Source: a candidate division WWE3 bacterium
GTDB taxonomy: Bacteria > Patescibacteriota > 4484-211 > GCA-002791395
DNA: 64,000 bases
Assembly (NCBI GenBank): GCA_013335095.1
Contig: JAAXWF010000001.1
Coordinates: forward strand, 381,984 to 445,983
Direction of reading: 5' to 3'
Made by a program: the position numbers and the translations under genes. A model generated the notes under the pieces. That model saw only the letters and a list, made by a program, of their open reading frames with translations. It had not been told where the DNA came from and did not search any database. Of the stretch, positions 425 to 24,479 are shown piece by piece. Numbering within the stretch: the first letter of the stretch is position 1; the number at the start of each line of letters is the position of its first letter.

Positions 425-534
425 ATTTTATCCCATAATATTGAATTTTTTAGTTTATATTGATACAATCCTGTTGTCTTTTGCGGCGAATTGATAACGG
501 AGCTGAGAGTTATCTCAGCATGTACAGGAGGCGT

Positions 535-915
535 ATGAGACACCGCAGTGTGAGCCCTCAGGATATCTCGGATCAATACGTCAAGCACCTGATTCTGGTG
601 CTTCGGATCTCTCCGGCAGAGATTGATGAGTGCGAGCTCATCGCCCAGTGGACCGCCACGCGCTGGGACCAGGTCCTTGAGTTCGTGCGGGGGCTTGGTA
701 CCCGCAAACTCGGCCTGCTGGTCGCCAGCGTCCAGGAGGATGTGAGCGTAGACGATCTTAGTCTGTACTCGGTCCACTGCGAGACGTGGCTGGCAAAGCA
801 CGCCTCGGGGCGAGAGTTGCTTGAGTCCATCGCCGCGACGATGCTGATCGCGCGTGTCTTTGGTCAGCTGCGAAGCCAGACCAAATGGGCGCGTCGGCCG
901 AGGGCTGCGGCGTAG
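535..915 (+). CDS. hypothetical protein (126 aa), GC-rich cassette
   Basis: SD AGGAGG 5 nt before the ATG at 535. GC-rich codon usage. Followed by a strong intrinsic terminator. No recognisable motif. Confidence 0.5.
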   Translation: MRHRSVSPQDISDQYVKHLILVLRISPAEIDECELIAQWTATRWDQVLEFVRGLGTRKLGLLVASVQEDVSVDDLSLYSVHCETWLAKHASGRELLESIAATMLIARVFGQLRSQTKWARRPRAAA

Positions 916-921
916 TTGAAT

Positions 922-968
922 GGCGGCGGGTGTGTTCCTTCGGGATACACATTCGCCGCATTTTTTTA
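922..968 (+). terminator. Rho-independent terminator (GGCGGCGGGTGTGT...ACACATTCGCCGC followed by T7)
   Basis: Long GC hairpin followed by TTTTTTT, read directly from the sequence. Confidence 0.7.
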
Positions 969-1095
969 TCTGTATACATTATTTTTTCAAATATATCTCG
1001 ATTAATTATTGAATATGGAAGTTGGTATGAAATTTGGGAGCGGATAATAATAGGGCAGGATTATTAGTCCTGCCCATGCGTTTTCCCTTTCTTGC

Positions 1096-1770
1096 TTAAG
1101 CCGGCTGGCCGGCGATCATCGCCTCGGCCCAGTACGTCTCGGTGTCATCAACCGACCTCTGGGTGAAAAGAACCCCGAGTCGTTCGATGACCTGGTCGAT
1201 GGTCAGCCCTGATAGTAGGATTGTGATCCCATTCTCAAAGTTGACCTGCGTGGTCTGCGGTATGATGAGCCCCAGCAGATCGGCAATCTGCGGGTTTCCA
1301 CACAGAATGTGGCATTGGTCGATCTCTGGGGGGAGGCCTACCACCCGATAGCTGGCCCGGTAGGGCTTCAAGATGATGACGCTGGGCCGCAGGATGGCGA
1401 GCTCGCGCGAGTACTCATCAATCCGGAAGTTTCCACCTGGCCTGGCAACTCGGATAATCTCGGCTGCCTTCATCTGGCGGTACGTGTTGTACTCCCTCCA
1501 GAAGAAGTTAGTCTCAGGCTTACTGTTTCGATAATCAGTGGCCTGGGCGAGACCGCCATGGTCGGAAACCATGTTGCTATATGGGTAGTACTCGTGGATC
1601 CCACGTTCCGGGCTCCATCGATACACCCCATGGTGGTGGCACTCCACCCACACCCGCCGATCCTCGCCTGGGAACACCCAGCCAAGGAAATCGACGATTT
1701 TGGCCTGATCGGCCGCATCCAGACGTAGTTCGCTCATAGAGCGTCCCTCCCTATAATTCTCCGAATTCAC
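1096..1770 (-). CDS. hypothetical protein (224 aa), GC-rich
   Basis: SD GGGAGGGAC 5 nt before the ATG at 1770. Coherent GC-rich ORF. Contains a His cluster (ECHHHG). No family recognised. Confidence 0.55.
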   Translation of the reverse strand: MNSENYREGRSMSELRLDAADQAKIVDFLGWVFPGEDRRVWVECHHHGVYRWSPERGIHEYYPYSNMVSDHGGLAQATDYRNSKPETNFFWREYNTYRQMKAAEIIRVARPGGNFRIDEYSRELAILRPSVIILKPYRASYRVVGLPPEIDQCHILCGNPQIADLLGLIIPQTTQVNFENGITILLSGLTIDQVIERLGVLFTQRSVDDTETYWAEAMIAGQPA

Positions 1771-1882
1771 TTTCTGCCGGTGCAGATGGATTAAGTATAA
1801 CGTAAAGTATGAAAAATGTCTAACACTATGGGGCTTTGTATCTATTAAGAAGGATGTGTCGATAGATATTCAGTAAATTTGG

Positions 1883-1918
1883 GAATAAAAAACCCGTATG
1901 CCAAACTGACATACGGGT
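1883..1918 (-). terminator. Rho-independent terminator for the minus-strand operon (ACCCGTATG...CATACGGGT followed by TTTTTTATT)
   Basis: Hairpin plus U-run on the minus strand, immediately 3' of the ORF that ends at 1929. Confidence 0.6.
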
Positions 1919-1928
1919 CCATGTTCGA

Positions 1929-2726
1929 TTACAGGTTGGATAAAAGATCTTCCAACCCATCCAGTTCCCCAGCGATTGCGGCGATTTCGCGTTCTCGCTG
2001 GTCGTCTTGAGCGGCCTGCTTTGCATCCCTCTGGATTTGTGCCGCCTTTTGCCTCTCGCGGAGCACTTCTTCCTCAGCGAGTTTTTCCATCATAGCCCGA
2101 TACCAAGCCAGGTATGCTGGCAGATCGGTTAACGTTGTCTGATCATAGATGCGCATATGTCCCATGTGCTCTCCATGATCACGCCACACCTCAAGACCGT
2201 TGCTGGTAATGCGGCTAGCGACTCCTTCGGGGATAACCACTTCGGCAAATAATGCCTCGTAGCGACTCCGCGATGCTTCTCGCTGTGCCGTCTCTACTGC
2301 ATACTGTGCATCATGCAGCGCCTGCACCTCTTGGCGTCTTTGAATCTCTTCTTGACGCCTGCGTTTATCCCTATCGATCCCTTGAGTAATGCCGATTATT
2401 GTCGGTTCGTACCCAAGAACCTGGCGAAGGAATTCATCCCCGTCATCTAGAAGTTGGCCATCAAACTGATGGGTACCGTAAGTGTAGGCGATCGGTCCAC
2501 CTTCACGGTAGCCACCTTTGGAACTAACCCCTTTGCCGTAATCGTAACCACCTCTTCCTTCAATACGAAGAAGGCAGCGCTCCATAAGAGCGATTGTTAC
2601 GACCCGATCCCGGTAGTCACCTGCATATCCTGATGTCCGGACCGAATCCGGAAATACCATCAGTGCCCAGTGATCCTTATATCGACCTTGACCGATGGTC
2701 TCGACCAAATACCAGAGACCGTGCAT
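1929..2726 (-). CDS. hypothetical coiled-coil protein, GC-rich. The start is uncertain. The ORF is open to 2915 and overlaps the upstream gene.
   Basis: Long GC-rich ORF with an Arg/Glu/Gln-rich C-terminal coiled-coil region and a Gly/Tyr-rich segment (GGYDYGKGVSSKGGYREGG). No good SD at 2915. An internal Met at 2726 lies just downstream of the stop of the upstream gene. Confidence 0.4.
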   Translation of the reverse strand: MHGLWYLVETIGQGRYKDHWALMVFPDSVRTSGYAGDYRDRVVTIALMERCLLRIEGRGGYDYGKGVSSKGGYREGGPIAYTYGTHQFDGQLLDDGDEFLRQVLGYEPTIIGITQGIDRDKRRRQEEIQRRQEVQALHDAQYAVETAQREASRSRYEALFAEVVIPEGVASRITSNGLEVWRDHGEHMGHMRIYDQTTLTDLPAYLAWYRAMMEKLAEEEVLRERQKAAQIQRDAKQAAQDDQREREIAAIAGELDGLEDLLSNL

Positions 2727-2812
2727 TCCCCGATGGCGGGATAGGCTGTTATGTCGGCCGTTTCTCAGGGTCCACGAGGTCGGACCTTGATCGGTAAACG
2801 CGCGCGTGGCCA

Positions 2813-4741
2813 CTATTGGCCTCCTTCGATCTTGGCGAGCAGTGCCGGCGGGAATATCGATAGAATCGACTTGCCAGCTTTTTCGCGCCAATCCTGATCG
2901 GCTGCCACTTCCCATCCATAGTCGCGGTAGGCGGTGAGTGCTGTCTCGATCTGCCGGTGGTCGGGGGTACCTGTGGTATAGATATCGCCCTTCCGGCTAC
3001 CACTGCCCTTGCGGCGTGACGTGGTGTAAGTCGTCCGGTCGAATTCGGTGAGAATCCAACCCTCAGCTCCTCCGACAAGTACGATGGGGTTACCGGTATC
3101 GGTATAGCGCCAACCCGATAAGATCAACCCATCGTCTTTGGCTCGACGAATAAGATCCCTGATTGCAGCGACCTTTTCCGCCGTTTCTTCTGCCGCAGTC
3201 TGAGGTGCTTCCCAGCGGTATACCCACCGGTAGTTTCCTCGGATCTTTACATACTCGACTGAAACCGTGCTGGATCCAGCGAAATGCTGGTTGCCCCGCG
3301 CAATGTCAGTGATCGTGTGCGGTCGAAGCTCATCGCCCTGGCGAATTAGAACCTGAGCAAAGCCCAGATTACTCGCCAGTTTAACCACCACATGGTGGGG
3401 GAGCTGAACGACAGCGTTAAATCTGTATGCATGGGGCTCTCCAGGCGTTTCGATGGCAATGATCTCTGCCTCGAGTTCACCCGGAAGTTGACGAAACCAT
3501 GCATCAAGCTCGTCCGATCGAAGCGGTCGAATATCCTCGACCGTGTCTGCCCGAATTCGAGCGATTTGCTCAGCATCAGGTTTCGGACCGTGTGGCCATT
3601 CAATCGATTCCCAAGCGTTTGCCGGAGCGTCTGATCTCATGACCGCATTTTCGAACGCATCGGTTGGTGCGCCCCAGTGTTGTGCGCCATCGAATAGCGG
3701 CAAAACATCGGGATGTATTACACCATGATTACTTCCAGCAGCCCAACCGTTCCATCCCGAACCTGCAACGCCGAGCCGGCGCAGTTCATAAAAGACTGCG
3801 TCTGGTACGGATCGGAGTCCAGCCATCTGGGCGGTTTGACCTGCTTCCTGATAAGCCGCGCGTGCTGCCTCCAGGTGAGACTGGGCTTCTGCCGGTACTT
3901 CTGGTACCAGGCTCGTCAGGTAGTGATTTGGCACTGGGCCAAATTTCTGCCAGACTATGGTGCCATTCTTAAGTTCCCCGACCTCGATTTCAAAGATTTG
4001 GCTCGGGAAACCGGGAATGCCCACTCTTATTAAGGCTAAGACCTTATTGGGGCGAAGTGCCCACTCAACAAACTGTCCCCACGCAGGGTTAACCCGAAGG
4101 GGATGGCAGTTAATTGAGCTGCGACTGCGCTCTGTGGTGATCCAACATACCGGTTCTGGTCCTGACAACCGATATGCTTCTTGCCCGAGCGTCACCAGTT
4201 GAGCATTGTTCCATGCTACGGTGACGCTTCGTGTTGCTCGTGCCCCAGGAACGATTTCTCCCTGCCAGCTGGCGGTAGCCACATAGCTGTGAACTACACC
4301 ATCGACGGAGAACGTCGTGCCTTCCAGGGTCACTGTAACCGTCAAGGTTTCACCATTGACGGCGATTGTCGGAGTGTCCTTGTCCCAATCTTGAAATGCA
4401 TCAAGCTGCGCTTGAACCAACGCCGCCATTTGATGGCGCTGGTTGGCCTGATCCTGTTGGATCTGCAATGCATTCTGCTGAGTAACTTCTCGCTCGTGGC
4501 GAGTGCTGATTCGCCGGATGATCGTCAAGAAGTGCACGGAACCGGACGCATTTTCCCCACCTTTGGTCGGAATTTTAACCAGCCAGATGTCTCCATTGGC
4601 TGGCTGTCGACCACTGCGTTGGGGAAAGGCAATGCGGCCGTTGATTCGTTGAGTGGCCATGACACCGCTATCGCGGGCAGGGCAAAACTCAACCTCAAAT
4701 TCTTGCTCTATGAGAGCTGCAATACCTTGAGTACGGGCCAT
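2813..4741 (-). CDS. hypothetical large protein (642 aa), GC-rich
   Basis: SD GGAGGGAC 3 nt before the ATG at 4741. Coherent ORF. No P-loop or other signature recognised. Confidence 0.55.
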   Translation of the reverse strand: MARTQGIAALIEQEFEVEFCPARDSGVMATQRINGRIAFPQRSGRQPANGDIWLVKIPTKGGENASGSVHFLTIIRRISTRHEREVTQQNALQIQQDQANQRHQMAALVQAQLDAFQDWDKDTPTIAVNGETLTVTVTLEGTTFSVDGVVHSYVATASWQGEIVPGARATRSVTVAWNNAQLVTLGQEAYRLSGPEPVCWITTERSRSSINCHPLRVNPAWGQFVEWALRPNKVLALIRVGIPGFPSQIFEIEVGELKNGTIVWQKFGPVPNHYLTSLVPEVPAEAQSHLEAARAAYQEAGQTAQMAGLRSVPDAVFYELRRLGVAGSGWNGWAAGSNHGVIHPDVLPLFDGAQHWGAPTDAFENAVMRSDAPANAWESIEWPHGPKPDAEQIARIRADTVEDIRPLRSDELDAWFRQLPGELEAEIIAIETPGEPHAYRFNAVVQLPHHVVVKLASNLGFAQVLIRQGDELRPHTITDIARGNQHFAGSSTVSVEYVKIRGNYRWVYRWEAPQTAAEETAEKVAAIRDLIRRAKDDGLILSGWRYTDTGNPIVLVGGAEGWILTEFDRTTYTTSRRKGSGSRKGDIYTTGTPDHRQIETALTAYRDYGWEVAADQDWREKAGKSILSIFPPALLAKIEGGQ

Positions 4742-4979
4742 GTCGTCCCTCCTAGCAAAATTACCCAGTAGGTTTCCATTCCTTACTCAGAGGCGATTAT
4801 TTCCGTCTCTTTTAGGGATCTTATTCGGCGTACTATTGATACCCAAAATAATATCCCTCAACGAGACATCTGTTAAAGTTCTGCGTATAAATCAATACAA
4901 GGCTTCATTATACGGTTAATTGGGTGTTATGTAAAATACTATAAGATCTAAAGCTGCACAATTTCATATGCGCGTATAA

Positions 4980-6314
4980 TTGTCGTATATGCCAAAAGAA
5001 AAGGTCGTATATCAATGTAATGCGTGCGGATTTACCTCGTACAAATGGCAGGGTAAATGCTTTGAATGTGGGGCGTTTAATTCATTTTCTGAGAAAAAAA
5101 TAACCTCAACTAAGAGCTCTTCTGTCTCTCCTGTGGGGTATTCATCGTCTGATACGGTAAAACTGAGTCAAGTCGCTATGGATGAGAAGAAACGAATATC
5201 AAGTACTATTAATGAGTTGGACCTTATCATTAACGGTGGATTCGTGCCAAATCAAGTCGTTTTGATTGGTGGGGAGCCTGGGGTGGGGAAGTCGACCTTG
5301 CTTTTGCAATTAGCGGGTCAATTCCAAAGTCTGTATGTGTGTGGTGAAGAATCAGAAGTCCAGGTCAAATTACGAGCTCAACGGATGGGAATATCGGCTG
5401 ATTCGATTACCTTATATCGTGATCGTGAAGTAAATCAGCTTACTAACTTTATTCACGATAACTATCCGTCCAATAATAACAACCAACCGACGTTAGTCAT
5501 CGTCGACTCAATACAATCAATTTTTTCTTCACATATAGAATCAACCCCGGGGGGAATTTCTCAAGTTCAATATTGCACAAATAAACTTGTCGAAACTGCG
5601 AAGAGAACAAACGTAATCTTGGTTATTATTGGGCAGATTACAAAAGAAGGCGGTATTGCCGGACCCAAACAACTTGAACATATGGTCGATTCGGTGTTGT
5701 ATTTAGAAGGTGATCGTAAAACTGACTTAAGAATTCTGCGCGTTGAAAAAAATAGATTTGGACCAACTGATCAGGTCGGGATGTTTCAGATGTCGGAATA
5801 TGGCCTAGTGAGTGCCGAGGATCTGTTAGCAAAGTTGATTGATTCGGGTCATCAAGATATTCCTGGGTCTGTTATAACGGTTGCGATGGAAGGGCAACGT
5901 CCGATACTTCTTGAAGTCCAGGCGCTCAATACAACCGCGCAATACGGAAATGCTCGCCGAGTTGTAAATGGAATGTCTTCAAATCGGGTTCAAATGCTCC
6001 TTGCCGTACTTCAGCGTCGCGTCGGATTAAAAACAAGTAATTACGATATCTATGTTAACCTCAGTGGTGGTTTTAAAGTTAATGATCCTGCGCTCGATCT
6101 TCCGGTCGCTTTAGCCGTGTATTCGGTGATTAAAAATAAGCCGTTGCCACAAGATTTAGTTGCGTATGGAGAAGTTGGGCTTTTAGGCGAAATTAAATCT
6201 ACCTGGCAATCGACTCGCCGTCGCAATGAAGCCGAAAAACGGGGATATAAAACGATTGTTGATCAGTCATTTGCCAAATCTATCGCCTCTTGTATTAAAA
6301 AACTTTTCGTTTAA
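4980..6314 (+). CDS. radA: DNA repair protein RadA/Sms
   Basis: N-terminal C4 zinc finger (CNACG...CFECG). Walker A GGEPGVGKSTLLLQ. KNRFG motif (RVEKNRFGPTD). Lon-like C-terminal domain. Confidence 0.9.
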   Translation: MSYMPKEKVVYQCNACGFTSYKWQGKCFECGAFNSFSEKKITSTKSSSVSPVGYSSSDTVKLSQVAMDEKKRISSTINELDLIINGGFVPNQVVLIGGEPGVGKSTLLLQLAGQFQSLYVCGEESEVQVKLRAQRMGISADSITLYRDREVNQLTNFIHDNYPSNNNNQPTLVIVDSIQSIFSSHIESTPGGISQVQYCTNKLVETAKRTNVILVIIGQITKEGGIAGPKQLEHMVDSVLYLEGDRKTDLRILRVEKNRFGPTDQVGMFQMSEYGLVSAEDLLAKLIDSGHQDIPGSVITVAMEGQRPILLEVQALNTTAQYGNARRVVNGMSSNRVQMLLAVLQRRVGLKTSNYDIYVNLSGGFKVNDPALDLPVALAVYSVIKNKPLPQDLVAYGEVGLLGEIKSTWQSTRRRNEAEKRGYKTIVDQSFAKSIASCIKKLFV

Positions 6315-6381
6315 TCCTTTTGTTCGTTATTTGTTAGGAAAATATCAATTAGTTTCATACTAAATAGTTACTATAGGTGTG

Positions 6382-6397
6382 TACTGTAATCACAGTA
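6382..6397. promoter_or_regulatory. 16-bp perfect palindrome TACTGTAATCACAGTA in the promoter region of the radical SAM gene; candidate operator
   Basis: Perfect inverted repeat (TACTGT aatc ACAGTA) about 65 bp upstream of the start codon. Confidence 0.4.
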
Positions 6398-6462
6398 TGC
6401 ACCTTTATAAGGAGCGGTCGTATGACCGCGTTATCTGGCTTCTGCCAGGCAAGGAGTGGACC

Positions 6463-7539
6463 ATGTTCACCAATGTTAACTCCAATATCTCGTATGACCT
6501 TTTTGGCCAGGGGGAAATTAATGTCGATGCTTGGGCAGCTATTTGTGCCCACCATAACATTGACCCACACCAGCCGGTGTTGATGCTTCCCCATGGGAAG
6601 ACCACCACGGCCGGGGGGCAAAAGATCAGTCGAATCCTGTGGGAGGTCCGAAAACTGTACTTCTATCAGGTGGTCGATACGATCGGCCAACTGTGGAGTG
6701 CCTCTCGGATCTCGACAATCGACGAATTACCGAGTGGTCTGCCCATGACCCGAATTATCTCGTTTGGCGAGTGCAACGTAAGTTGCCCGTACTGCAAGCG
6801 AGATTGCCAGTTCCGTGATGACGACGGTGAGGTGATCGTATCGATCCTGGTACCGTTAAGTCAAGTTCTGGCCGGGTGTGTGGGGGCACACTCGCGGGGC
6901 GAGATCGTCCGGTTCAGCGGCGGTGATCCGGTGATGTTTCGGCGTGAAACCGAAGCTATTGCCGAGTACCTAGCTGCTGTTCATGGGACTAAGGTTTCGA
7001 TTGCCCACAACGGCAGCGGGACCAGCTGGGTCAAACGGCTATTGCCGAACCTTAGCTCGGCGGCAATTGATCTTAAGGCTGTGCCGGAAAAAATCGGCAT
7101 GGTTATGGGGATCAAGTCCGAGCAGGGGCAAGCAATGTACACACGCTCACTAGCCACCCAAGCGGTGGTCAGCCAGGGCGGGGCATTGCTTGACGTTCGG
7201 ACGCCGGTTTTCGGTACCACTTCGACCGATGAAATGCGCCGATTGGCGTATGACATTTGTCGGGTGAATGATCTTCGGTACACCTTCTGGACATGGCGTC
7301 TGTACAAGGCGGTTCAGGGGTGTGACTGGGAGGTTGCCGAAAAGGATCGGGTGATCGAGCAGATGCAACGTGTTTCGGCCGAATTTCCTGACCTGTGGTT
7401 GGGGATTCGGGCCAAGTGGCAGCGCGGCGGCATGGAGTACCTCCGTGCTGGGCGCGTGATCGACCACTCGGCCGACGCCGAGGCCGGATATGATGCCGAG
7501 ATAGGCTCGGGCAACCAAGCCATCTTGGCGCCAGGATAA
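6463..7539 (+). CDS. radical SAM enzyme of unknown subfamily (about 358 aa), GC-rich
   Basis: CxxxCxxC cluster (FGECNVSCPYCKRD). SAM-binding-like segment (RFSGGDPVMF). SD AAGGAG 6 nt before the ATG at 6463. The upstream ORF frame from 6379 has no SD. Confidence 0.7.
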   Translation: MFTNVNSNISYDLFGQGEINVDAWAAICAHHNIDPHQPVLMLPHGKTTTAGGQKISRILWEVRKLYFYQVVDTIGQLWSASRISTIDELPSGLPMTRIISFGECNVSCPYCKRDCQFRDDDGEVIVSILVPLSQVLAGCVGAHSRGEIVRFSGGDPVMFRRETEAIAEYLAAVHGTKVSIAHNGSGTSWVKRLLPNLSSAAIDLKAVPEKIGMVMGIKSEQGQAMYTRSLATQAVVSQGGALLDVRTPVFGTTSTDEMRRLAYDICRVNDLRYTFWTWRLYKAVQGCDWEVAEKDRVIEQMQRVSAEFPDLWLGIRAKWQRGGMEYLRAGRVIDHSADAEAGYDAEIGSGNQAILAPG

Positions 7540-7560
7540 AAGGAGGTGCGAATAAATTCG

Positions 7561-7593
7561 GGCGGGTGTGTATTTCACATCCGCCTTTTTTTA
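7561..7593 (+). terminator. Rho-independent terminator (GGCGGGTGTG...ACATCCGCC followed by T7)
   Basis: Hairpin followed by TTTTTTT directly after the radical SAM stop codon. Confidence 0.7.
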
Positions 7594-7832
7594 TCTTCAT
7601 TCTAATAGTAGTCGGGGTGTTGTGGTTAATTCTGCAACATTCCGGCCTTTTTCTGATTTTCTATCTACAATTTATCAATTTTTTCCTGACAAAAAGCAAA
7701 AATCTCATTTTTTCCACTCAATTTTCATTATTCTGGTCTCATCGCACCTTAAGCGAATGGAGCCGGATCAAAATCCGGCACAATCTTGCCCCGCTGGGGC
7801 TAATCCCTCGTGCTGAGGGGAAGGAGAGGACC

Positions 7833-8276
7833 ATGTTCTCGATACTTACCGGCGTGACGGTGGACGGGATCGCGACAGAGCTTATCGTGGGGCTGATTGC
7901 GGCCCTGATTGGCTCGATTCTGGGTAATCTCATCTACCGGCCTATCCGCGAGCGATGGGAACTCCACCGCTTCGGCGGTTGGGTGTTCATCGTTCACATG
8001 CCGGACGGCCGCGAGGGCCTGCGGCGGCGCATGAGCGTCGCCCAGGTGCGGGAGTTCATTCCGCATGGTCAAAACGACCGCGATGTGGACGAGGCCGGGT
8101 TCGCCTCCTACATCACCGGGGTCGTTTCGAAGGCTGGTCCGCGGAGCGTCTGCTGGATCAATGGTGATCCGCTTACTCTTCCTGGGCTAATGACCATCAA
8201 GCGGGTTGAGCGTCAGGTCTTCATTGACCTGGCCAAGAATCCGCGAGATGAGTCGTCTGACCGTGGAGGCGGCTAG
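7833..8276 (+). CDS. small membrane-anchored protein (147 aa, one N-terminal TM helix), GC-rich
   Basis: SD AAGGAG 6 nt before the ATG at 7833. Hydrophobic N-terminus (ILTGVTVDGIATELIVGLIAALIGSILGNLIY). The 7566 start in the ORF track lacks an SD. Confidence 0.5.
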   Translation: MFSILTGVTVDGIATELIVGLIAALIGSILGNLIYRPIRERWELHRFGGWVFIVHMPDGREGLRRRMSVAQVREFIPHGQNDRDVDEAGFASYITGVVSKAGPRSVCWINGDPLTLPGLMTIKRVERQVFIDLAKNPRDESSDRGGG

Positions 8277-8286
8277 GTGCGAATTA

Positions 8287-8328
8287 GGGGTCGGAAAGCA
8301 CAGCGCTTTTCGACCCTTTCTTTTATTT
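8287..8328 (+). terminator. Rho-independent terminator (GGGGTCG...CGACCC followed by TTTCTTTTATTT)
   Basis: Hairpin plus T-run. Confidence 0.65.
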
Positions 8329-8586
8329 CTGACAATTACATGACTAAATCCACTTTTTTCCCTAACAGAAAGTAAAAAACCCACTTACCAGATTCTTTTT
8401 TCGGTATTGTGATCTTAGTAGCACATTAAAAGACCAGGTTTCCTCTTACCCAATACGAGCGGGGTGTTAGGCGGTTGATGCATAGACCGCCCGATACCCC
8501 GATCGTCCTAGCCAATCGAGCTAGGCGGGTACTCCGCATCTGCGGAGGTGGAGGCGCACATTGCGCCACTATAAGGAGGTAACCCC

Positions 8587-8943
8587 ATGGCTACCACGAT
8601 TGTTCGGATCACCCGCCACGCCGCCGAAGCCGCCCAGCTCGATGAGCTGAAGCGGATCTTTGGTGTGGTTGAGGTCGTCCAGGTCAGCGAAACGCTGCCG
8701 GGCGACCCCAAGGCTGCGGTGGCCCGGTTCGACGAGATCGCGGCGGATGCCGCGGTGGTCGAGGCCGTTCTGCCCACCAACCTGTTGGAGGCCGCGCTGA
8801 AGTTCAGCGCGTTCGCCAACCGGGGGGGCACCCTGATTCGTGCGGTCACCAACCGCACCATCGGGGTCGACGGCCAGGCCTCCTTCACCTTCGCTCACTA
8901 CGAGCGGGTGGTGAAGGTCGAGATCGTGACTGAGAAGCTGTAA
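8587..8943 (+). CDS. hypothetical small protein (118 aa), very GC-rich
   Basis: SD AAGGAGG 6 nt before the ATG. Ala/Val/Glu-rich globular-looking sequence. No motif recognised. Confidence 0.5.
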   Translation: MATTIVRITRHAAEAAQLDELKRIFGVVEVVQVSETLPGDPKAAVARFDEIAADAAVVEAVLPTNLLEAALKFSAFANRGGTLIRAVTNRTIGVDGQASFTFAHYERVVKVEIVTEKL

Positions 8944-8967
8944 CGCTTACTCGGTCACGATCTACTC

Positions 8968-9006
8968 GGGCAGGGGAGTAAAATCTCTCCTGCCCCTATT
9001 TTTCTT
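8968..9006 (+). terminator. Rho-independent terminator (GGGCAGGGGAG...CTCTCCTGCCCC followed by T-run)
   Basis: Hairpin followed by TATTTTTCTT. Confidence 0.65.
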
Positions 9007-9049
9007 GCATGAGGGAGCAATCTCTCCGCTTTTTTGATACTGTTAATAC

Positions 9050-10279
9050 ATGCACTCCCATCTAAAAATTGCAATCTGCGGAGCCCCCAATAGTGGAAAA
9101 TCAGTCTTTTCGCATGTGCTAGCATCTCTACTACCCCGTAATCGATTTACTTTAATAGAGGGAGCACCTGATGGCATCGGCGTTAACGGTGGGTTGTATC
9201 AACTGCCAACTTCAGTTGCTAAGCGATTGCGTCGGAAAGGAAGCTTTGTTCCTAAGTACGTCGACTGGATTGTTCGTTCAGTTCGTCAATCGACTGCAAG
9301 TATTACACTTGTTGATATTGGGGGGAAAATCAGTCCGGAAAACATGCAGATTATGCAGTCATGTAGCCATGTTATTGTGCTGGGGCGTACCCGTCGTCAA
9401 ATATTATCTTGGATCCATTTTGCTCAAACCCATCATCTCACTGTATTAGCTATTTTGCATACCTTGCTTCAAGGAGAAGATACGCTCTATTCAGAATCAA
9501 TTCCCATAAGAGGCGTTGTTACTGGATTAAAAAGAGATCAACCGCCGTTTAATTCGATGGTGATACAAAGGATTGCGAATTTACTACTGACTCTTTCAAC
9601 TACCGACGATCCTCGACTCGATGGATCAATGCTTGCTGATATTAATTTATCTAAACTCGCTGAAAAGCTTGATTTACCGATAAATCCTGGTGGTATCGAT
9701 AGGCGATGGACCCCCGAATCACTGAGCGAATTATTACAAAATATTGATAACCAGTGTCATAACAACAAACAAATTCTTTTGTGGGGCAATGCATCATCGG
9801 GGCTTCCGTACCATACTGTTGCGGCTAACCTTTTAAATCAACGAATTCGCTACTATGATCCCAAGATTAATCCTGGTTATGTGCCATTAGCCGATGTCGA
9901 TATGGGCATTAACGGGGATGATTTATTAGAGTGGGAGCGGAAGGACCGGTCCGGATATACTCATATTCATTTTAGACTTAAAGAGGGCGTCTTCGATGTT
10001 TTTGATTTACCGATGTTGAAGCCGCCATTTATTGATACCAAAAAGGGTTTAATTCTCACTGGTCGGGGAATGTGGTGGTTAACAGGTACAATATTGCGGT
10101 GTTACGCACGGTATAAATTGCCGTGGATTGCCGTGCTAAATACGGCCGAAATTTCGGAATGGTACAAACAACATCCTCAAAAAAATGATTCAAAATTATA
10201 TGGAGTTGCCGTCGTAATTATGACAAATTCACCGACTATACAATTAGGTACAACGATGGTTTTTCCGCTGGCTAGTTAA
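9050..10279 (+). CDS. P-loop NTPase of unknown function (409 aa)
   Basis: Walker A/G1-like motif IAICGAPNSGKSVF and DxxG motif (LVDIGG). AT-rich native-like composition. C-terminal half unrecognised. Confidence 0.55.
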   Translation: MHSHLKIAICGAPNSGKSVFSHVLASLLPRNRFTLIEGAPDGIGVNGGLYQLPTSVAKRLRRKGSFVPKYVDWIVRSVRQSTASITLVDIGGKISPENMQIMQSCSHVIVLGRTRRQILSWIHFAQTHHLTVLAILHTLLQGEDTLYSESIPIRGVVTGLKRDQPPFNSMVIQRIANLLLTLSTTDDPRLDGSMLADINLSKLAEKLDLPINPGGIDRRWTPESLSELLQNIDNQCHNNKQILLWGNASSGLPYHTVAANLLNQRIRYYDPKINPGYVPLADVDMGINGDDLLEWERKDRSGYTHIHFRLKEGVFDVFDLPMLKPPFIDTKKGLILTGRGMWWLTGTILRCYARYKLPWIAVLNTAEISEWYKQHPQKNDSKLYGVAVVIMTNSPTIQLGTTMVFPLAS

Positions 10280-11501
10280 GTTTAAGTTGAAAACCGCGTC
10301 CGCGAACGGTGATTAAATGTTTGGGATTATATTTATCAGTTTCAACTTTATCGCGTAAGCGGCTCACCAGTTGGTCAATTGCTTCATCGCTAACTCCTTG
10401 TTCCTTTCTGACCTCCCAAACTGCTTCGGCGATTTCATCACGGTCAATAACCCGGCCATGATGTTCGTACATATACCTAAAGAATTTATATTCATTTGGG
10501 GTAAAGATATCATCAATCCGAACTCCTTTTTTGTAAACTTCTCCGGTCACATCATCTAAATAGAGTGCGGGATGATTTTCAGTAATAAAATCAGCTAATC
10601 GTGAACTAAATACTTTTTTCTTTTCATTTATTACTCCAAGCTGCGATAGCTTTTTTAATTCGAGCTGATCTCTTTCGGTTAAATGTAATCCTACAACTAA
10701 TCGTTGGATCGCTTTTTGCTGAGACTCGGTTAATACATTTAATATTCTCTGACACTGGAAAATAACGGTCTCGTGATGAGCTGCTGATGTTAGTTTTTCT
10801 TTAAAAGAACCATGTTCAATTGCGGTTAATTGATAGATGTATGCATCAATCATTCGATTGTGCCCACCGGTTATTTCATAGACTGTATCGATTTCATCTG
10901 AATTTAAATGTAATCCACGCGCATTGGATTTATATTCAATGTAATAATTAGCTTCTTTTTCATCAAATGGTTCAAGGTAGAACGTGAATGGCGCAACGAG
11001 TGTATAAAATTGATCGATGTCTTGAATGTCTCGAATTGATTCTATTGGCTGATTGAGCGAGATTACCATGGTTACGTGTCGATTGCTCTGCACAACCATT
11101 GATCGCAATGTATCAAAAAATAAATTGGGAAGGTGAGCAAGTGCTTTTTCAAATCGATCAAAGATAATCACGTACCGTTTGCGTTGTTTTGCTGCCCATG
11201 TCACGAACTGTTCAATCGAGCTAATGTTTGTATTTTCCAGTGTTAAGTTAATTTCATTGATAATACATTCATGAATACCGTCGATTGTTAACTCCCGTAG
11301 ATTGTTTAAATCAACAAAAATAGGTTTGATCGAGGAATTTGATGATAATTTCTGTTTTATTTTTTGCAATAAGAAAGTTTTTCCGACCCCTGGAATACTG
11401 ACGATTAGACAACTGTCGCTTTGTTTAATTGAATTGCTCACATCGGTCGATATTTTTTGTCTAAACCATGAGGGGGTCTGTTTAAATATCGTTTCAGTCA
11501 T
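10272..11501 (-). CDS. AAA/STAND-like ATPase with C-terminal OmpR/PhoB-type winged-helix DNA-binding domain
   Basis: Walker A IVSIPGVGKTFLLQ. C-terminus ...EYKFFRYMYEHHGRVIDRDEIAEAVW...ITVRGRGFQL matches the trans_reg_C signature. Confidence 0.65.
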   Translation of the reverse strand: MTETIFKQTPSWFRQKISTDVSNSIKQSDSCLIVSIPGVGKTFLLQKIKQKLSSNSSIKPIFVDLNNLRELTIDGIHECIINEINLTLENTNISSIEQFVTWAAKQRKRYVIIFDRFEKALAHLPNLFFDTLRSMVVQSNRHVTMVISLNQPIESIRDIQDIDQFYTLVAPFTFYLEPFDEKEANYYIEYKSNARGLHLNSDEIDTVYEITGGHNRMIDAYIYQLTAIEHGSFKEKLTSAAHHETVIFQCQRILNVLTESQQKAIQRLVVGLHLTERDQLELKKLSQLGVINEKKKVFSSRLADFITENHPALYLDDVTGEVYKKGVRIDDIFTPNEYKFFRYMYEHHGRVIDRDEIAEAVWEVRKEQGVSDEAIDQLVSRLRDKVETDKYNPKHLITVRGRGFQLKLN

Positions 11502-11585
11502 GCAATTTGAGTATAAGATACGACCGGGATTGAATCAATGTAATACGCAATAGTCTACCAAAATATTTATTTTTGAGCGTGTGAA

Positions 11586-11918
11586 TTATTTAATCCGAAA
11601 CGGCATTGCTCGGTTTAAGTTGGTTGTACCTTTTGTATCTACTCGCGATACGCCATTTGATCGTTGGTTAATGTCGGTCGCCGGAGATGAGGGAAGCGTC
11701 ACATTTGCATTGCGTTGTACTGCATATCTTCGTGCAGACTCTAGGTCCGATTCTCTTAATGAAGGATTCTCTCTCAATATATCATCAGTAGATTTACCTC
11801 GGGAGAGGTCCTCTAAGACAGAGGACACTGTAATGCCAGTTCCCGAAAAAACAGCTTGGCCACCAGCTAATTGTGGGTTAAATTGAATATGGCCATAATC
11901 AGTATTACGCCGTGACAT
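11586..11918 (-). CDS. DUF433-family protein (putative antitoxin-like DNA-binding protein) with C-terminal extension
   Basis: Core AGGQAVFSGTGITVSSVLEDLSRGKSTDDILRENPSLRESDLESARRYA resembles the DUF433 signature. Confidence 0.5.
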   Translation of the reverse strand: MSRRNTDYGHIQFNPQLAGGQAVFSGTGITVSSVLEDLSRGKSTDDILRENPSLRESDLESARRYAVQRNANVTLPSSPATDINQRSNGVSRVDTKGTTNLNRAMPFRIK

Positions 11919-12175
11919 ACCTATATAGTATCAGACTTCTACAAAAACGTGTAGAAACTCGTTGCCGCTTGATCCTAAAGCCGAATTGACAGCTTTAGAA
12001 CAATGTTGTAATACAATACGTGGCACCATATACATCATATCGTTATGGGTAGTAAGATGAGTCCGTTTACTCATTTTTCTACCCTTAATCGAAGGGTCCG
12101 GATCTTTGATCTGGTGGCACACAATATGGAGCCTGAGCAACTCGTTTGTCTAGGCATGTAAAGGAGATCGCGGCG

Positions 12176-13285
12176 ATGGCGGATCTGACACAACGGAGTG
12201 GGTCAGAGGATCGGATGTATGGATTTATTCGAGAGTGGCGACGTGAAGCTCGTCGTCTGGTCGTTTATTCTGGTGAGCCGATTAATCAGTCCTATCCCCC
12301 TCAACCACAAGATGATGCGGTTCGTTTTCAAGCCAGCGTGGACGACTTAGCCCCTAGTGTTATTGGCTTGATCTTGTGCCGACAGGCGGCAGGACAACGG
12401 GTATCGTTTATCGTTGAGCGAGATGCTCTCAGCCATCGGAGCATTTCCGATGTCCATGCGAGCATCCGATTACCTCGGAATCTGCAGGCATATACACCTG
12501 AGCCGTCACGAGCGTCGAATCAGCCAATGATCATCACCCAAGTCCGTGATGATCAAAACCGAACTGATGATGGAGGGTACCGGATTATGCATTCCGGTAG
12601 TCGTACCGGAGGTATGCAGGTCCTATACCACGCTTCTTCAGCTGGGGTGTTGGCAGCATTCGACACCTTTGTGCCTGAAGGTAATTTCGGCAGGATACCT
12701 CCGGTCCTCGTCGTATCTGATACGAATCGGACAGGGTATCTTCTGGTGCCGATTCAGTCACGGTATCATATGCAACTTCCACGGACCGATTTCTATCCTG
12801 GATTTTGGCGAGAAGCGGCTCAATCGCTTGGGCTAGACAAGATTACTCTGGTGATCTGTCGAACCGTACCGGCGTATGTACTGAGCGTTCGGAGTCTCAC
12901 CGAACAATTTTCCTTTGCCGAAACCCGCATCTTAGTCGATGGCCGCGGTCGGGTGTGGGGGCAGCTGCAAAAAGATGGTAAGGCCTGGTGGGACGAGGCT
13001 CCCGTATTGGGTCTTGATCCAGCCTCATTTCCAACAGAGCCTCGACAAATCTTAACCGAGGCTCAAGGCACATCAGTCGAAGCGAATCGCCGTCTTTTGG
13101 AGATTCAATTCGTGGTGTCGCTTTTAGCCGCGGATGGAATCTTAGGACGAGTCTATACGCCGATTCGAACCTACGGCAAACCAGTGTTGCCGGTATCACC
13201 TTCGGCAGCGCTCGTCCATCGGGCAATCGAGAACATGCCCTTTGGGTTTCGTCCTCAGCTGCGCACTATAAGTGTTGCTAGCTAG
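12176..13285 (+). CDS. hypothetical protein (369 aa), GC-rich
   Basis: SD AAGGAG 9 nt before the ATG at 12176. The ORF track begins at an in-frame TTG at 12146. Coherent GC-rich ORF. No motif recognised. Confidence 0.5.
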   Translation: MADLTQRSGSEDRMYGFIREWRREARRLVVYSGEPINQSYPPQPQDDAVRFQASVDDLAPSVIGLILCRQAAGQRVSFIVERDALSHRSISDVHASIRLPRNLQAYTPEPSRASNQPMIITQVRDDQNRTDDGGYRIMHSGSRTGGMQVLYHASSAGVLAAFDTFVPEGNFGRIPPVLVVSDTNRTGYLLVPIQSRYHMQLPRTDFYPGFWREAAQSLGLDKITLVICRTVPAYVLSVRSLTEQFSFAETRILVDGRGRVWGQLQKDGKAWWDEAPVLGLDPASFPTEPRQILTEAQGTSVEANRRLLEIQFVVSLLAADGILGRVYTPIRTYGKPVLPVSPSAALVHRAIENMPFGFRPQLRTISVAS

Positions 13286-13297
13286 TTACTAAATACG

Positions 13298-13330
13298 TCT
13301 GGGAGCTTCCAAAAGCTCCCAGTTTTTCTT
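13298..13330 (+). terminator. Rho-independent terminator (CTGGGAGCTT...AAGCTCCCAG followed by TTTTTCTT)
   Basis: Perfect 10-bp stem plus T-run. Confidence 0.7.
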
Positions 13331-13360
13331 GACATCCTATAATATTTTTCGTACTATAAT
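13329..13360 (+). promoter_or_regulatory. sigma70-like promoter (TTGACA, 18 nt, TACTAT/TATAAT) followed by a structured leader of about 180 nt
   Basis: Consensus -35 TTGACA and -10-like hexamers. The leader contains nested stems (GGGGTACAAA/TTTGTGCCCC enclosing CCCTAAA/TTTAGGG; GATAACC/GGTTATC). Confidence 0.5.
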
Positions 13361-13544
13361 CTGTTACATATTGGATGGGGTACAAATTTCCCTAAAATGG
13401 GTATTTAGGGACGTTTGTGCCCCATTTGTTGATAACCGTCGGGGTTATCGCAATGTGGTAATGCAAGGCCTCTGTGAGGTTTTGCATTGTGTGGTGGGCT
13501 TGTGCCCATAGGCGTCTGTTGGTCTCCATATTAAGGAGGAAGCC

Positions 13545-13949
13545 ATGACGGCACCTGCAGGAGCGACCACTCATCGGCCGCTAGCGGATCGCTCGCTCGG
13601 TACCCCGGGCCAACTGCTCGACATCGATGGGTACACCATTGATGAGGTCGATGGCGGCGGTCGTCATTATCTCACGAGGTGGTTGCTATCGATCGATAGC
13701 CATGGTGTCGTTCACGAGGTCGAGGAGGTCGGGATCGTCGATCCGCGTGATCGGTCGGTATCAAAATCCATCTTCCCGAGGGAGATGGTGCCGGCCCTGA
13801 TGGCTGCTGAAGGCGATCTGCTCTCGTTGACCCTTGGGCAGATCAACGCCATGATTGGCGGCAGCGTCCTGACGGACTGGCGCGAGATCCGTGGTGCTGG
13901 GGTTAAAATCCGCCAGTATCGCGAATCACAGGCGGCTACTGCCGTCTAA
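13545..13949 (+). CDS. hypothetical protein (134 aa), GC-rich
   Basis: SD AAGGAGG 5 nt before the ATG. Coherent ORF. No motif recognised. Confidence 0.5.
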   Translation: MTAPAGATTHRPLADRSLGTPGQLLDIDGYTIDEVDGGGRHYLTRWLLSIDSHGVVHEVEEVGIVDPRDRSVSKSIFPREMVPALMAAEGDLLSLTLGQINAMIGGSVLTDWREIRGAGVKIRQYRESQAATAV

Positions 13950-13973
13950 TCACGCTAAGTTCGGGTCATTACG

Positions 13974-14010
13974 TGGGGCGGGCAGAGATTTCTCTGTCCG
14001 CCTTTTTTCA
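13974..14010 (+). terminator. Rho-independent terminator (GGGGCGGGCAGAGA...TCTCTGTCCGCC followed by T6)
   Basis: Hairpin plus T-run. Confidence 0.7.
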
Positions 14011-14068
14011 TCTAGGTTAATGAGACATGTAACAGGGGCCGTGACGTAAAATGTTAAAATAATCCTAG

Positions 14069-14812
14069 ATGATAAAAGAAGTCATCGATGCCGTCCGTCG
14101 GTTTCGAATCCCGAATATTTATGTGGTAGTTGCAGATCGTTTTCCAACTCCGTTTGCCGGACTTACTCCAGAAAGTAAACAAAAGGAACTCGCGCCTCCA
14201 AAAGAAATAGAAATTAAGAGTCGTCCTGCTTTGGTGGTCGATACATCGGCTCTAATTGATGGGAGATTAGCCGACATAATCGAGACTGGGTTCATTTCGG
14301 GTACTGTAGTTGTCCCGACCTTTGTAATCGAAGAACTTCAACGGGTTGCTGATTCAAAAGATAGTTTAAAGCGTAATCGAGGTCGGCGTGGTCTTGACGT
14401 CTTAAAGTCAATAAAAAAATGCCGTTATGTTAAGTTTCTTATCCCCAAAATAAAATCTGGTCGAGATCCTATCGATACGCAATTATTAAACTTTGCCAAA
14501 CAGATTAATGGTCGAGTTGTCACAACTGACTATAACTTGAATAAAGTAGGAAAGGTTACCGGTGTACCAATGCTGAATATAAATGAGTTGGCGAATATGG
14601 TGAAAACTGTTGTATTACCGGGCGAAATAGTCGAACTAAATGTATTAAAAAAAGGAAAAGAGCAGGGGCAGGGGATTGGTTATTTACCCGATGGCACGAT
14701 GGTGGTTGTTGAAGATGGAGGACGGCTTATAGGGGTAGATATTGAAGTTAAGGTCGAAAGACTTCTTCAGACCGATGCTGGGAAAATGATCTTCGCAAAA
14801 CCTATTTCATAA
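14069..14812 (+). CDS. PIN domain plus TRAM domain protein (YacL-like)
   Basis: PIN-like N-terminus (LVVDTSALIDGRL...TTDYNL). C-terminal TRAM-like beta segment (GEIVELNVLKKGKEQGQGIGYLPDGTMVVVEDGG). Confidence 0.6.
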   Translation: MIKEVIDAVRRFRIPNIYVVVADRFPTPFAGLTPESKQKELAPPKEIEIKSRPALVVDTSALIDGRLADIIETGFISGTVVVPTFVIEELQRVADSKDSLKRNRGRRGLDVLKSIKKCRYVKFLIPKIKSGRDPIDTQLLNFAKQINGRVVTTDYNLNKVGKVTGVPMLNINELANMVKTVVLPGEIVELNVLKKGKEQGQGIGYLPDGTMVVVEDGGRLIGVDIEVKVERLLQTDAGKMIFAKPIS

Positions 14813-15110
14813 GCAAATAATATCTTTATTCTGTATGGTGATAAATATTTTAATAGTTGTTTGACATAATTTATGGGGTGTGTTATAAGAAGGCCTAACA
14901 GTCTTAACTAGCACGTCCTTTGCTTTTGGGGCAGTGGAGCAAAGGCGTGCTAATTGAGACGGTTTAAAGGTGCTCTCCTAATTTTTATTAACAATTTGAC
15001 AGAACTGATTATCGTAGTATAAACTTTAAATAGTTCGTTATACGGAGAAATATTTCCTTTCATGTAGAAGTTTTCGTACGTAGCCCGTTCAATAAAAAGC
15101 AATAGTCCTT

Positions 15111-16322: not shown

Positions 16323-16899
16323 TTTCCTGGTATCTGTTTTTGTAGTTTTCCGAATTATCTGAAAAGTGTCATCAATTGGGTAACTAAGTTACTCAGTCGA
16401 TGATCTTAGCGAAAATCTCTTGAGTTACGGGCCGTAGAATGGTGATTTACTATGGGGATGTTTTGGTTTTGTGTATGTTGAGTATATTTATTGACCGGAA
16501 CCTATTCTGGTGTCTTCTGTATAGCCGCTTAAGGGATAGATTCGAATACAGAGTATTTGCTGGATCGTTCTGAATGTCTTGTCGGAACAAGTAAATTCAT
16601 CTCGTGTCGATGATGAATGGCTCTACAGAGCCAACCTGAGCGCAGGCCAGCAGGTCGAATGTGCAGTCTGCTTGCTTTTTTGGTATAATAACTACACCAT
16701 GCAAAGTGAGATTCAAGAACCTCCTTTAGGAAGGTTCGCGAGCTCGGGAGATAGTTCGACTCTCGAATACCTCCACAATATAATTGTGTTTGTCCGAGTT
16801 TTGGTTTGGCGACTTGTTTCTTATGGAATCAATGTGGCCAATGCAATTCTTGGGGCGTTTAAAACCGTTCATCATTCAATCAACGAGTTTAAGCGTTTT

Positions 16900-17886: not shown

Positions 17887-17977
17887 ATAGCCCTATAGTT
17901 GATTTTTCCCTTTTTAATTTGTATTATTAACAGCGTCTGTTGGCTCATCGGGTCTTTTCTTTTACTACGGAGGGACT

Positions 17978-18892: not shown

Positions 18893-19114
18893 TCCGCCGG
18901 GGGCCAGCGCTTGGCCTATTATCGCCCCGGACGACCCCTTCACCGATGAAAACGGTGTAAAAGAGTTAGGAAGTCAAGCAGCCCCTCTGGGGCTTACCCA
19001 GAGATGTGTCGATAAGACGTTGAGTAAAAGGAGGCCTGTCGTGAAGATGGGCATAACTATATCTAGTCGGGCGGATTAACCGTGGGTATAACCACGAATA
19101 ATCCGCCTTTTTTG
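18893..19114 (+). ncRNA. candidate GC-rich structured RNA or leader element ending in an intrinsic terminator (19069-19114)
   Basis: GC-rich block with multiple hairpins (GCCGGGGG...CCCCGG, CACCG/CGGTG, CTCTGGG/CCCAGAG) in an AT-rich genome. A 12-codon mini-ORF with SD has its stop inside the terminator stem GGGCGGATTA...TAATCCGCC followed by T6. Confidence 0.35.
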
Positions 19115-19152
19115 TTATTATGGTAATTAAGGCAGGTATTTGTTAACTATTT

Positions 19153-24413: not shown

Positions 24414-24479
24414 CTATGGGCTTTGTGGTGGTATAATACCAAGTGTCTAAAGGGTCGGTCATCATAGAGGAGGCATGCT

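Follow-up and report, generated by a model that had tools for sequence, protein, structure and literature searches.

Four GC-rich genes at bases 535–4741 of a 64,000-nucleotide stretch of DNA, which was analysed at its full length and is referred to here as the window, have a G+C (GC) content of 53–62% compared with ~40% for the genome. The window belongs to a 536-kb contig of a metagenome-assembled genome of candidate division WWE3, within the Patescibacteria or candidate phyla radiation (CPR), and the four encoded proteins carry the locus tags HGA91_02040 to HGA91_02055. The genes make up three transcription units flanked by two native genes, S1 and radA, namely a gene for a protein of 126 residues, a gene for a protein of 213 residues, and a two-gene operon whose products are designated F1 and F2. 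Metagenomic contigs of ~11 further lineages, Saccharibacteria among them, also carry the F1-F2 pair. That the pair is real, foreign, and conserved is held with high confidence; the composition, open reading frames (ORFs), and signals observed in the window are confirmed apart from a few corrections, and the horizontal origin of the GC-rich genes is well supported. The full statement favoured here, that these are acquired units and that the operon among them is a conflict module, is put forward tentatively and given somewhat less than an even chance.

The genes and the AT-rich spacers are as follows, GC3 denoting the GC content at third codon positions.

2813–4741, minus strand: F1, 642 residues, multidomain, starting at ATG 4741
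1929–2813, minus strand: F2, 294 residues, HGA91_02050, starting at GTG 2813
535–915, plus strand: 126-residue orphan gene, HGA91_02040, matching the GenBank model, GC 0.62, GC3 0.76
1096–1737, minus strand: 213-residue orphan gene, HGA91_02045, GC 0.58, GC3 0.72
972–1052: AT-rich spacer, GC 0.25
1738–1889: AT-rich spacer, GC 0.37
4742–4979: AT-rich spacer, GC 0.37

The GC content of the individual genes is 0.617 for the 126-residue gene (535–915), 0.576 for the 213-residue gene (1096–1737), 0.534 for F2 (1929–2813), and 0.550 for F1 (2816–4741), compared with 0.401 over 25–63 kb of the window, 0.401 for the S1 gene, and 0.417 for radA. GC3 is 0.76, 0.72, 0.51, and 0.53 for the 126-residue gene, the 213-residue gene, F2, and F1, respectively, whereas native genes of the window have a GC3 of 0.336 with a standard deviation of 0.033 (n = 29). 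The four genes thus lie 5–13 standard deviations above the native ones, and the shift in composition is not an amino-acid effect alone. GC1 and GC2, the values for first and second codon positions, are raised as well (0.65/0.44/0.76 for GC1/GC2/GC3 in the plus frame of the 126-residue gene, a coding-type pattern). This agrees with an earlier examination of the letters of this DNA, hereafter the sequence-only reading, which had described four genes of markedly higher GC than their neighbours. The GC-rich sequence falls into three blocks with spacers of 0.25–0.37 GC between them, and all four genes have coding-type positional GC, a Shine-Dalgarno (SD) sequence at the correct spacing, and terminators. 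Independent Logan assemblies hold the same proteins on contigs of 12–17 kb, the GC pattern recurs in independent metagenomes, and no paralogue of the four proteins is found within the window.

The signals surrounding the four genes are listed below.

526–531, plus strand: SD sequence AGGAGG, 3 nucleotides ahead of ATG 535 of the 126-residue gene
1743–1750, minus strand: SD sequence GGAGGGAC, 5 nucleotides ahead of ATG 1737 of the 213-residue gene
4745–4752, minus strand: SD sequence GGAGGGAC, 3 nucleotides ahead of ATG 4741 of F1
923–967, plus strand: intrinsic terminator of the 126-residue gene, a long GC stem followed by AUUUUUUU, −28.2 kcal/mol, z −6.5
1053–1075, minus strand: hairpin GGGCAGGA...TCCTGCCC 3' of the stop codon of the 213-residue gene, −18.2 kcal/mol, z −3.2
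1890–1920, minus strand: intrinsic terminator of the F1-F2 operon, a 14-bp stem followed by UUUUUUAUU, −20.8 kcal/mol, z −4.2
441–469, plus strand: promoter-like site of the 126-residue gene, TTGAAT, 17 nucleotides, TACAAT, with an upstream TG, located in the AT-rich spacer that precedes this gene, 9 of 12 consensus matches
1794–1822, minus strand: promoter-like site of the 213-residue gene, TAGACA, 17 nucleotides, TATACT, 10 of 12 matches
4876–4848, minus strand: promoter-like site of the F1-F2 operon, TTAACA, 17 nucleotides, TATTAT, 10 of 12 matches, spacer GC 0.37
4935–4907, minus strand: promoter-like site of the F1-F2 operon, TTTACA, 17 nucleotides, TATAAT, 11 of 12 matches, spacer GC 0.37
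4871–4882, minus strand: leader box AGAACTTTAACA, a 12-mer overlapping the −35-like TTAACA, the sole exact copy in the window

The identical strong SD sequence that the sequence-only reading had seen at two of the genes is present at both positions given above, and AAGGAGG lies 6 nucleotides upstream of the F2 start codon GTG 2813. An SD core precedes nine of the twelve genes that lie in GC-rich islets of the window but only one of 28 native genes (Fisher p = 7e-6), in keeping with the claim that the native neighbours have none; native genes without an SD occur, for example, at 4980, 25046–26263, 53202, and 57532–59280. Conversely, a −10-like (TATAAT-like) hexamer ending no more than 14 nucleotides from the start codon is found in 9 of 28 native genes and in none of the 12 islet genes, a placement which suggests that the native genes may be expressed from leaderless or short-leader messenger RNAs. 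Each of the three transcription units ends in a hairpin, as had been claimed (−18 to −28 kcal/mol, z −3.2 to −6.5). The tail of the terminator of the 126-residue gene is similar to those of other islets, and the hairpin at 1053–1075 is a terminator-like palindrome that can be read on both strands and has a weak U tract. Private promoters had likewise been proposed, and here the placement of the sites and their AT-rich spacers stand, whereas promoter-like hexamers as a class are not enriched relative to shuffled sequence (11 found, 9.7 expected) despite their sensible placement.

The TAG stop codon of F1 (2813–2815) and the GTG start codon of F2 overlap by one base (TAGTG, 2811–2815), so that the overlap and the minus-strand operon noted earlier are both borne out. 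The F2 start is backed by eleven homologues that begin at the aligned residue, fixing the length of the coiled-coil protein at 294 residues. For F1, whose length of 642 residues had been read correctly from the letters (as had the 126 residues of the first gene), the GenBank model (HGA91_02055, 551 residues) begins at residue 92 and leaves out the most conserved, OB-like domain. The public start codon is likely in error, to judge from the alignment, because homologues align from residue ~13 and because a strong SD sequence precedes ATG 4741.

A model of F1 was obtained with AlphaFold2 on an alignment of 15 sequences, with a mean predicted local distance difference test (pLDDT) score of 85. In this model residues ~14–80 form a five-stranded OB-like barrel followed by a long helix (residues 81–114). 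The barrel has the strongly conserved motif GVMa..RvnGRvaFPdRrGpQP..GD.WeVei.GeNP.gtVyFL, after which the 'ST.AERE' helix always comes next. The middle of F1 consists of beta-rich domains that are poorly conserved and are partly deleted in the L003 lineage (contigs bearing relatives are designated by such L numbers), whereas the C-terminal alpha/beta domain is conserved (GWRYTDTGNP...RKGxGSxKG...GW). The N-terminal domain is common to ~50 other protein clusters having unrelated C-termini. Compared with those S1, TRAM, and CSD domains that occur in the data, the F1 barrel gives hhalign probabilities of at most 0.2% and has no sequence similarity; compared with S1, TRAM, cold-shock, and ribosomal S17 OB folds, no Pfam match at E ≤ 1 is found in 15 members of the F1 family, and the barrel differs in having its own motif and an invariable following helix (ST.AERe). 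As modelled, the N-terminal barrel would be OB-like; in sequence it is a sharply conserved module of its own. The structural comparison that had been recommended, a Foldseek search with the AlphaFold2 model of F1 against PDB and BFVD, gave no usable fold match, the only alignments having template modelling (TM) scores ≤ 0.12 and being discarded as meaningless, and PDB sequence searches with the F1 and F2 family profiles gave nothing. F2 opens with a conserved domain of ~140 residues that is rich in Gly, Arg, and His, and a long, confidently modelled coiled coil with a beta-hairpin insert follows. Two candidate relationships were rejected: a WYL domain (PF13280), considered on account of the GLWYLVG motif of F2, has no Pfam match at E ≤ 1 in five F2 relatives, and the idea that the F1 C-terminal, F2 N-terminal, and OB domains are homologous repeats sharing KG..S.KG-like loops gives hhalign probabilities of at most 1.3%.

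Full-length relatives of the pair are found in metagenomic contigs only, and these are mostly AT-rich. An F1 homologue lies directly upstream of an F2 homologue in every contig inspected (L001, L003, L004, L005, L007/L008, L010, L012, L013/L014, L015, L016, and two contigs without DNA), and the F2 homologues are 37–48% identical to F2 of the window. The F1 family is rare: when 1.84 billion representatives were scanned exhaustively with HMMER, 14 proteins reached E < 1e-10, and ~45 further clusters matched F1 over residues 13–90 only. Where a source is named it is WWE3, Candidatus Saccharibacteria, or, for a single 8.5-kb contig, a bin of Anaerolineales, and is mostly CPR; the remaining contigs appear CPR-like judged by gene content and synteny. 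Compared with its flanks the pair has a higher GC content at every locus, with GC3 values of 0.35–0.47 compared with 0.17–0.27 for L003/L010 and of 0.47–0.50 compared with 0.31–0.44 for L001, and it is usually preceded by an AGGAGG-type SD sequence. The position of the pair varies, from S1/radA in the window to TrmB...YchF in L001, L012, and a JGI contig, HDAC/P-type ATPase in L003 and L010, P-loop/Csx3 in L005, and other flanks in L015. In several Saccharibacteria-like contigs the gene order is conserved, with methyltransferase and TrmB, then variable orphan genes, the F1-F2 pair, further variable genes, and finally YchF, S6, and SSB. In the syntenic contigs L003 and L010 the flanking proteins are ~90% identical, with nonsynonymous divergence (dN) of 0.04–0.08, while F1 is 52% identical (dN 0.45, ratio of nonsynonymous to synonymous divergence, dN/dS, 0.35) and F2 is 62% identical (dN 0.31, dN/dS 0.26), corresponding to a divergence 4–10 times faster than that of the flanks. 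A dN/dS below 1 combined with high divergence indicates that F1 and F2 are real and constrained, yet change, by evolution or by replacement, much faster than the genes around them.

The two single genes behave differently in these comparisons. The 126-residue protein has no match in Pfam, PHROGs, PADLOC, or NCBIfam, a wider homologue search not having been made. The ORF previously given as 224 residues most likely begins at ATG 1737 and thus encodes 213 residues, as annotated; its product matches only itself among 5.8 billion proteins and has no match in Pfam, NCBIfam, PHROGs, or PADLOC. Neither gene is found at any related locus, and this absence, together with the gap in GC3 between the single genes (0.72–0.76) and the operon (0.51–0.53), leads to their being read as separate acquisitions; the evidence points to the 126-residue gene, the 213-residue gene, and the F1-F2 pair having been acquired separately. 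The sequence-only reading had proposed one horizontally acquired four-gene module and had suggested looking for the same set in other genomes. The foreign and self-contained character of the genes is upheld, the single module is replaced by three units, and what travels, at varying positions, is the F1-F2 pair without the other two genes.

The neighbourhood of the pair in relatives includes genes of toxin-antitoxin and conflict type, namely BrnT/CopG, a MazE-like gene, AbiEii, and Csx3. Contig L017, which is 1 Mb long with flanks of 0.41–0.48 GC, has a 12.5-kb island at 5600–17950 (GC 0.54–0.67, GC3 0.52–0.82) that holds orphan genes and the genes for a DEAD-box helicase and for a 727-residue protein, the latter with an F1-type N-terminal OB-like domain and four internal repeats, and this island is flanked by four toxin-antitoxin pairs (HicB, Phd/PIN, FitA/PIN, and NTP_transf_2/HepT). 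In the window a generic radical SAM gene, a P-loop-Csx3 fusion, a gene for an AAA ATPase with a winged helix, and a PIN-TRAM gene occur within 10 kb; taken over the window and the relatives, this sample of neighbours is small. The fusion, at 9050–10279 on the plus strand and of native composition, combines P-loop and Csx3-like (PF09620, E 4.5e-8) domains in one gene, whereas in L005 separate P-loop (461–1087) and Csx3-like (1158–1511) genes lie directly upstream of F1-F2 inside the GC-rich block. The P-loop parts of the two loci are 29.5% identical (E 2e-19), and the association of P-loop and Csx3 with the pair may reflect a functional link or coincidence. Transfer RNA (tRNA) genes stand at the edge of the GC-rich block in L013 (7644–8110), L003 (5740–5814), and L010 (6075–6149), and a tyrosine recombinase (PF00589) is encoded 2.4 kb downstream of F2 in L007 (9565–10608); possibly the adjacent tRNA genes and the recombinase are traces of site-specific integration.

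The statement that none of the four window proteins belongs to a known family is supported by the absence of any match in Pfam, NCBIfam, PHROGs, or PADLOC, the last of these having been among the checks recommended and returning zero matches for the four. Among 15 F1 relatives PADLOC gave two isolated matches, at chance level. No match was found by tblastn of F1, F2, and the OB-domain relative in 50,697 phage records, nor by tblastn of F1 in 72,556 plasmids, and a scan of IMG/VR viral contigs with the F2 profile revealed no relative.

The leader of F1 contains two elements of possible regulatory or RNA character in the window or its relatives. The 12-mer AGAACYTTAACA is present in F1 leaders of the window (4871–4882, minus strand), L013 (9965–9976), L014 (8215–8226), and L015 (1534–1545), and is thus kept between F1 homologues that are only ~35% identical. 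L016 and L001 have near-matches to it, and in L015 it lies directly 3' of a hammerhead-like element. It may be an operator, a promoter −35 element, or an RNA motif. Type III hammerhead-like elements are found on the coding strand within GC-rich islands of relatives, at L001 7986–8044 and L015 ~1462–1531, both in leaders of F1 homologues, and at L001 ~11370–11425. As in the type III hammerhead (RF00008), the order of parts in L001 and L015 is stem III, NUH site, stem I hairpin, CUGAUGA, stem II hairpin, GAAA, and stem III, and all three stems differ in sequence between the L001 and L015 copies. A descriptor search yielded three matches with helices of 4–6 bp (two in L001 and one in L015), relaxed criteria giving ~0.4 per shuffle. 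In contrast to accepted members of that family, L001 7986–8044 scores 26.3 bits against a gathering threshold of 48.5, and neither other site is reported by Rfam. The F1 leader of the window has no ribozyme or known RNA and instead has the promoter-like sites listed above. The string CUGAUGAG in L012, considered as a hammerhead, proved by inspection to be two stop codons ahead of a terminator.

The explanation favoured here is that three transcription units were acquired independently by horizontal transfer and came to lie between S1 and radA, both native genes, and that F1-F2 would be their functional core. This core is a conserved and translationally coupled operon, its first gene, F1, being SD-dependent and its second, F2, coupled to it. 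The OB-like barrel of F1 may bind single-stranded nucleic acid; the coiled coil of F2 may oligomerise and dock on F1, perhaps pairing with the F1 helix, and the variable middle of F1 may face a changing partner. The pair would spread by transfer from GC-richer, SD-using Patescibacteria and would act as a cytoplasmic nucleic-acid-sensing conflict module, either in defence against phages and mobile elements or as an element-borne addiction system, rather than in housekeeping. Gene context weakly suggests such a conflict role, and a defence function of F1-F2 in particular is a plausible guess made by association, doubtful as it stands. An extended version, in which F1-F2 is a conflict system specific to Patescibacteria, its OB-like sensing domain is reused by ~50 clusters, the GC-rich SD-translated islets are mobile, and the mRNA is released by a hammerhead in some lineages, appears improbable in that full form.

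Several observations weigh against the conflict-module explanation. Fifteen F1 relatives have no usable match in Pfam, PHROGs, or PADLOC and five F2 relatives have none in Pfam; no catalytic or effector motif is recognised in F1 or F2; and the model of the F2 N-terminal domain is unreliable (pLDDT < 55) and was kept out of the fold search. At the edges of the window island there is no integrase or recombinase domain, no flanking or att-like repeat, and no tRNA gene within 23 kb. In the Saccharibacteria-like contigs the position of the pair is fixed and the divergence of F1 and F2 is about that of TrmB, which fits old vertical inheritance there, and since GC3 is raised even where the pair is syntenic, the high GC may be intrinsic and maintained rather than a sign of recent transfer. 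Conserved, syntenic homologues with housekeeping annotation had been named in advance as evidence that would count against an acquired module; what was found is a conserved position in the Saccharibacteria-like contigs, other positions elsewhere, and no housekeeping annotation.

These same contigs speak for an alternative in which F1-F2 is a resident and mostly vertically inherited function of Patescibacteria, for instance an RNA- or DNA-handling complex tied to translation or to the epibiotic lifestyle, and its high GC arises from amino-acid composition (Gly, Arg, Ala, Trp, and Pro) or from a recombination hotspot with GC-biased gene conversion. At least five contigs with the order methyltransferase, TrmB, pair, and YchF/S6/SSB, divergence similar to that of TrmB, dN/dS below 1, raised GC1 and GC2, and a GC3 excess that persists in syntenic lineages would all be expected of such a function. 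The very sparse distribution of the family (the 14 proteins of the HMMER scan), the differing flanks in WWE3, the L003 group, L005, and L015, the 4–10 times faster divergence than the flanks between L003 and L010, neighbours that are variable orphan and toxin-antitoxin genes, and the deletion of the F1 middle in one lineage argue against it, and the resident function with its intrinsic GC is accordingly rated as unlikely.

The tRNA genes that border the island in L013 and L003/L010 and the tyrosine recombinase 2.4 kb from the pair in L007 would be more readily understood if the units were left behind or carried by a CPR prophage or integrated mobile element, with F1 and F2 as structural or replication-related proteins, such as a scaffold and a protein for nucleic-acid binding or packaging. 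The hammerhead-like elements that L001 and L015 have in the leader of the pair are consistent with this origin, type III hammerhead ribozymes being common in phage and prophage contexts, and the way in which variable C-termini follow a conserved N-terminal module is reminiscent of phage fibre and polymorphic proteins. Nevertheless, PHROGs, the 50,697 phage records, the 72,556 plasmids, the IMG/VR contigs, and the BFVD structures contain no match; capsid, terminase, portal, and replication genes are absent near the pair at every locus, and the window has neither integrase nor repeats, so that this origin is considered rather improbable. A metagenome-assembled source, and the fact that the 126- and 213-residue genes have no homologue to confirm that they are coding (wider homologues of the former not having been searched), might raise the suspicion that chimeras of assembly or binning account for the GC-rich blocks, or that the ORFs are spurious in GC-rich non-coding DNA. 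However, native genes are interspersed with blocks of 0.4–3 kb along a single contig of 536 kb, the blocks are recovered by independent assembly, the same architecture occurs in unrelated metagenomes, F1 and F2 have conserved motifs and dN/dS of 0.26–0.35, and the four genes show coding-type positional GC, correctly spaced SD sequences, and terminators. An artefact is thus very improbable indeed. The horizontally acquired units with a conflict-module operon remain the favoured explanation.

At least five further GC-rich islets, with GC of 0.50–0.66 and GC3 of 0.48–0.86, lie amid native genes in the window, and essentially none occurs between 25 and 63 kb.

6463–8943: further GC-rich islet
12146–13949: further GC-rich islet
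17978–18839: further GC-rich islet
22800–24998: further GC-rich islet
63000–64000: further GC-rich islet

Most of these islets have an AGGAGG-type SD sequence, with near-identical SD-start contexts GGnAAGGAGnGGACCATGTTC at 6448 and 7818, and their ORFs have no Pfam match except for one radical SAM domain. The terminators at the 3' ends of four islets share a tail of CCGCC or CCGCA, a T-run, and ATCT (955–971, 7580–7596, 13997–14013, and 19102–19118). The exact CCGCCTTTTTT tail is confined to islet ends in the 64-kb window, and seven matches are found with one mismatch allowed compared with 1.7 expected. A search for border sequences around the islets revealed only these similar terminator tails and SD-start contexts. 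The islet at 17978–18839 (plus strand) comprises two overlapping ORFs in different frames, 17978–18436 and 18102–18839, with GGAGGGAC just 5' of the first ATG, which could be due to a frameshift in the gene, to an error in sequencing, or to programmed frameshifting. The gene at 6463–7539 (plus strand) encodes the GC-rich radical SAM protein, which scores 46.7 bits with NrdG-type activases against a cutoff of 131; an assignment as viperin was rejected at ~30 bits against a cutoff of 180, and the protein is a generic radical SAM enzyme instead. Genes of native composition between the islets include a fusion of an AAA ATPase with a winged-helix Trans_reg_C domain (10272–11501, minus strand) and a PIN-TRAM protein (14069–14812, plus strand), both of types that are frequent in conflict-related neighbourhoods.

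CPR bacteria, or Patescibacteria, account for a large share of bacterial diversity and have tiny genomes with few recognisable defence or accessory systems. Small GC-rich, SD-led cassettes among native genes that have no SD provide a simple sequence signature of recently gained genes, and the F1-F2 family and its reusable N-terminal domain are not covered by the databases searched. Some cultivated Saccharibacteria are genetically tractable and, provided that the pair occurs in a cultivated strain, the function of F1-F2 could be probed there; should that function prove ordinary, the locus would still illustrate cleanly how a streamlined genome gains genes in the form of islets.

Among known systems, two-gene anti-phage systems of the kind catalogued in PADLOC resemble F1-F2 in being compact, co-translated, and fast-evolving, with a variable centre and a patchy distribution, and toxin-antitoxin, AbiEii, and Csx3 genes are neighbours of the pair in some loci. 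The pair differs from such systems in that neither 15 F1 relatives nor the window F2 match any of 5027 PADLOC models, and in having no recognisable nuclease, NTPase, TIR, or protease effector. Patescibacteria have many genomic islands, and most transfers take place within the phylum (PMC12455944). Like these islands, the window units deviate in composition, consist of orphan genes whose content varies between relatives, and have toxin-antitoxin genes, tRNA genes, or a recombinase near the pair in some relatives, with donors that probably belong to the same phylum. They differ from genomic islands in that the blocks are tiny, being single genes or operons of 0.4–3 kb, that the GC enrichment is restricted to coding sequence while the spacers resemble host DNA, and that neither a mobility gene nor an att repeat is present in the window, and the position of the pair is fixed in Saccharibacteria-like genomes. 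In this comparison F1-F2 represents a new protein pair, with a new domain, within a known kind of feature, the small islet of the flexible genome.

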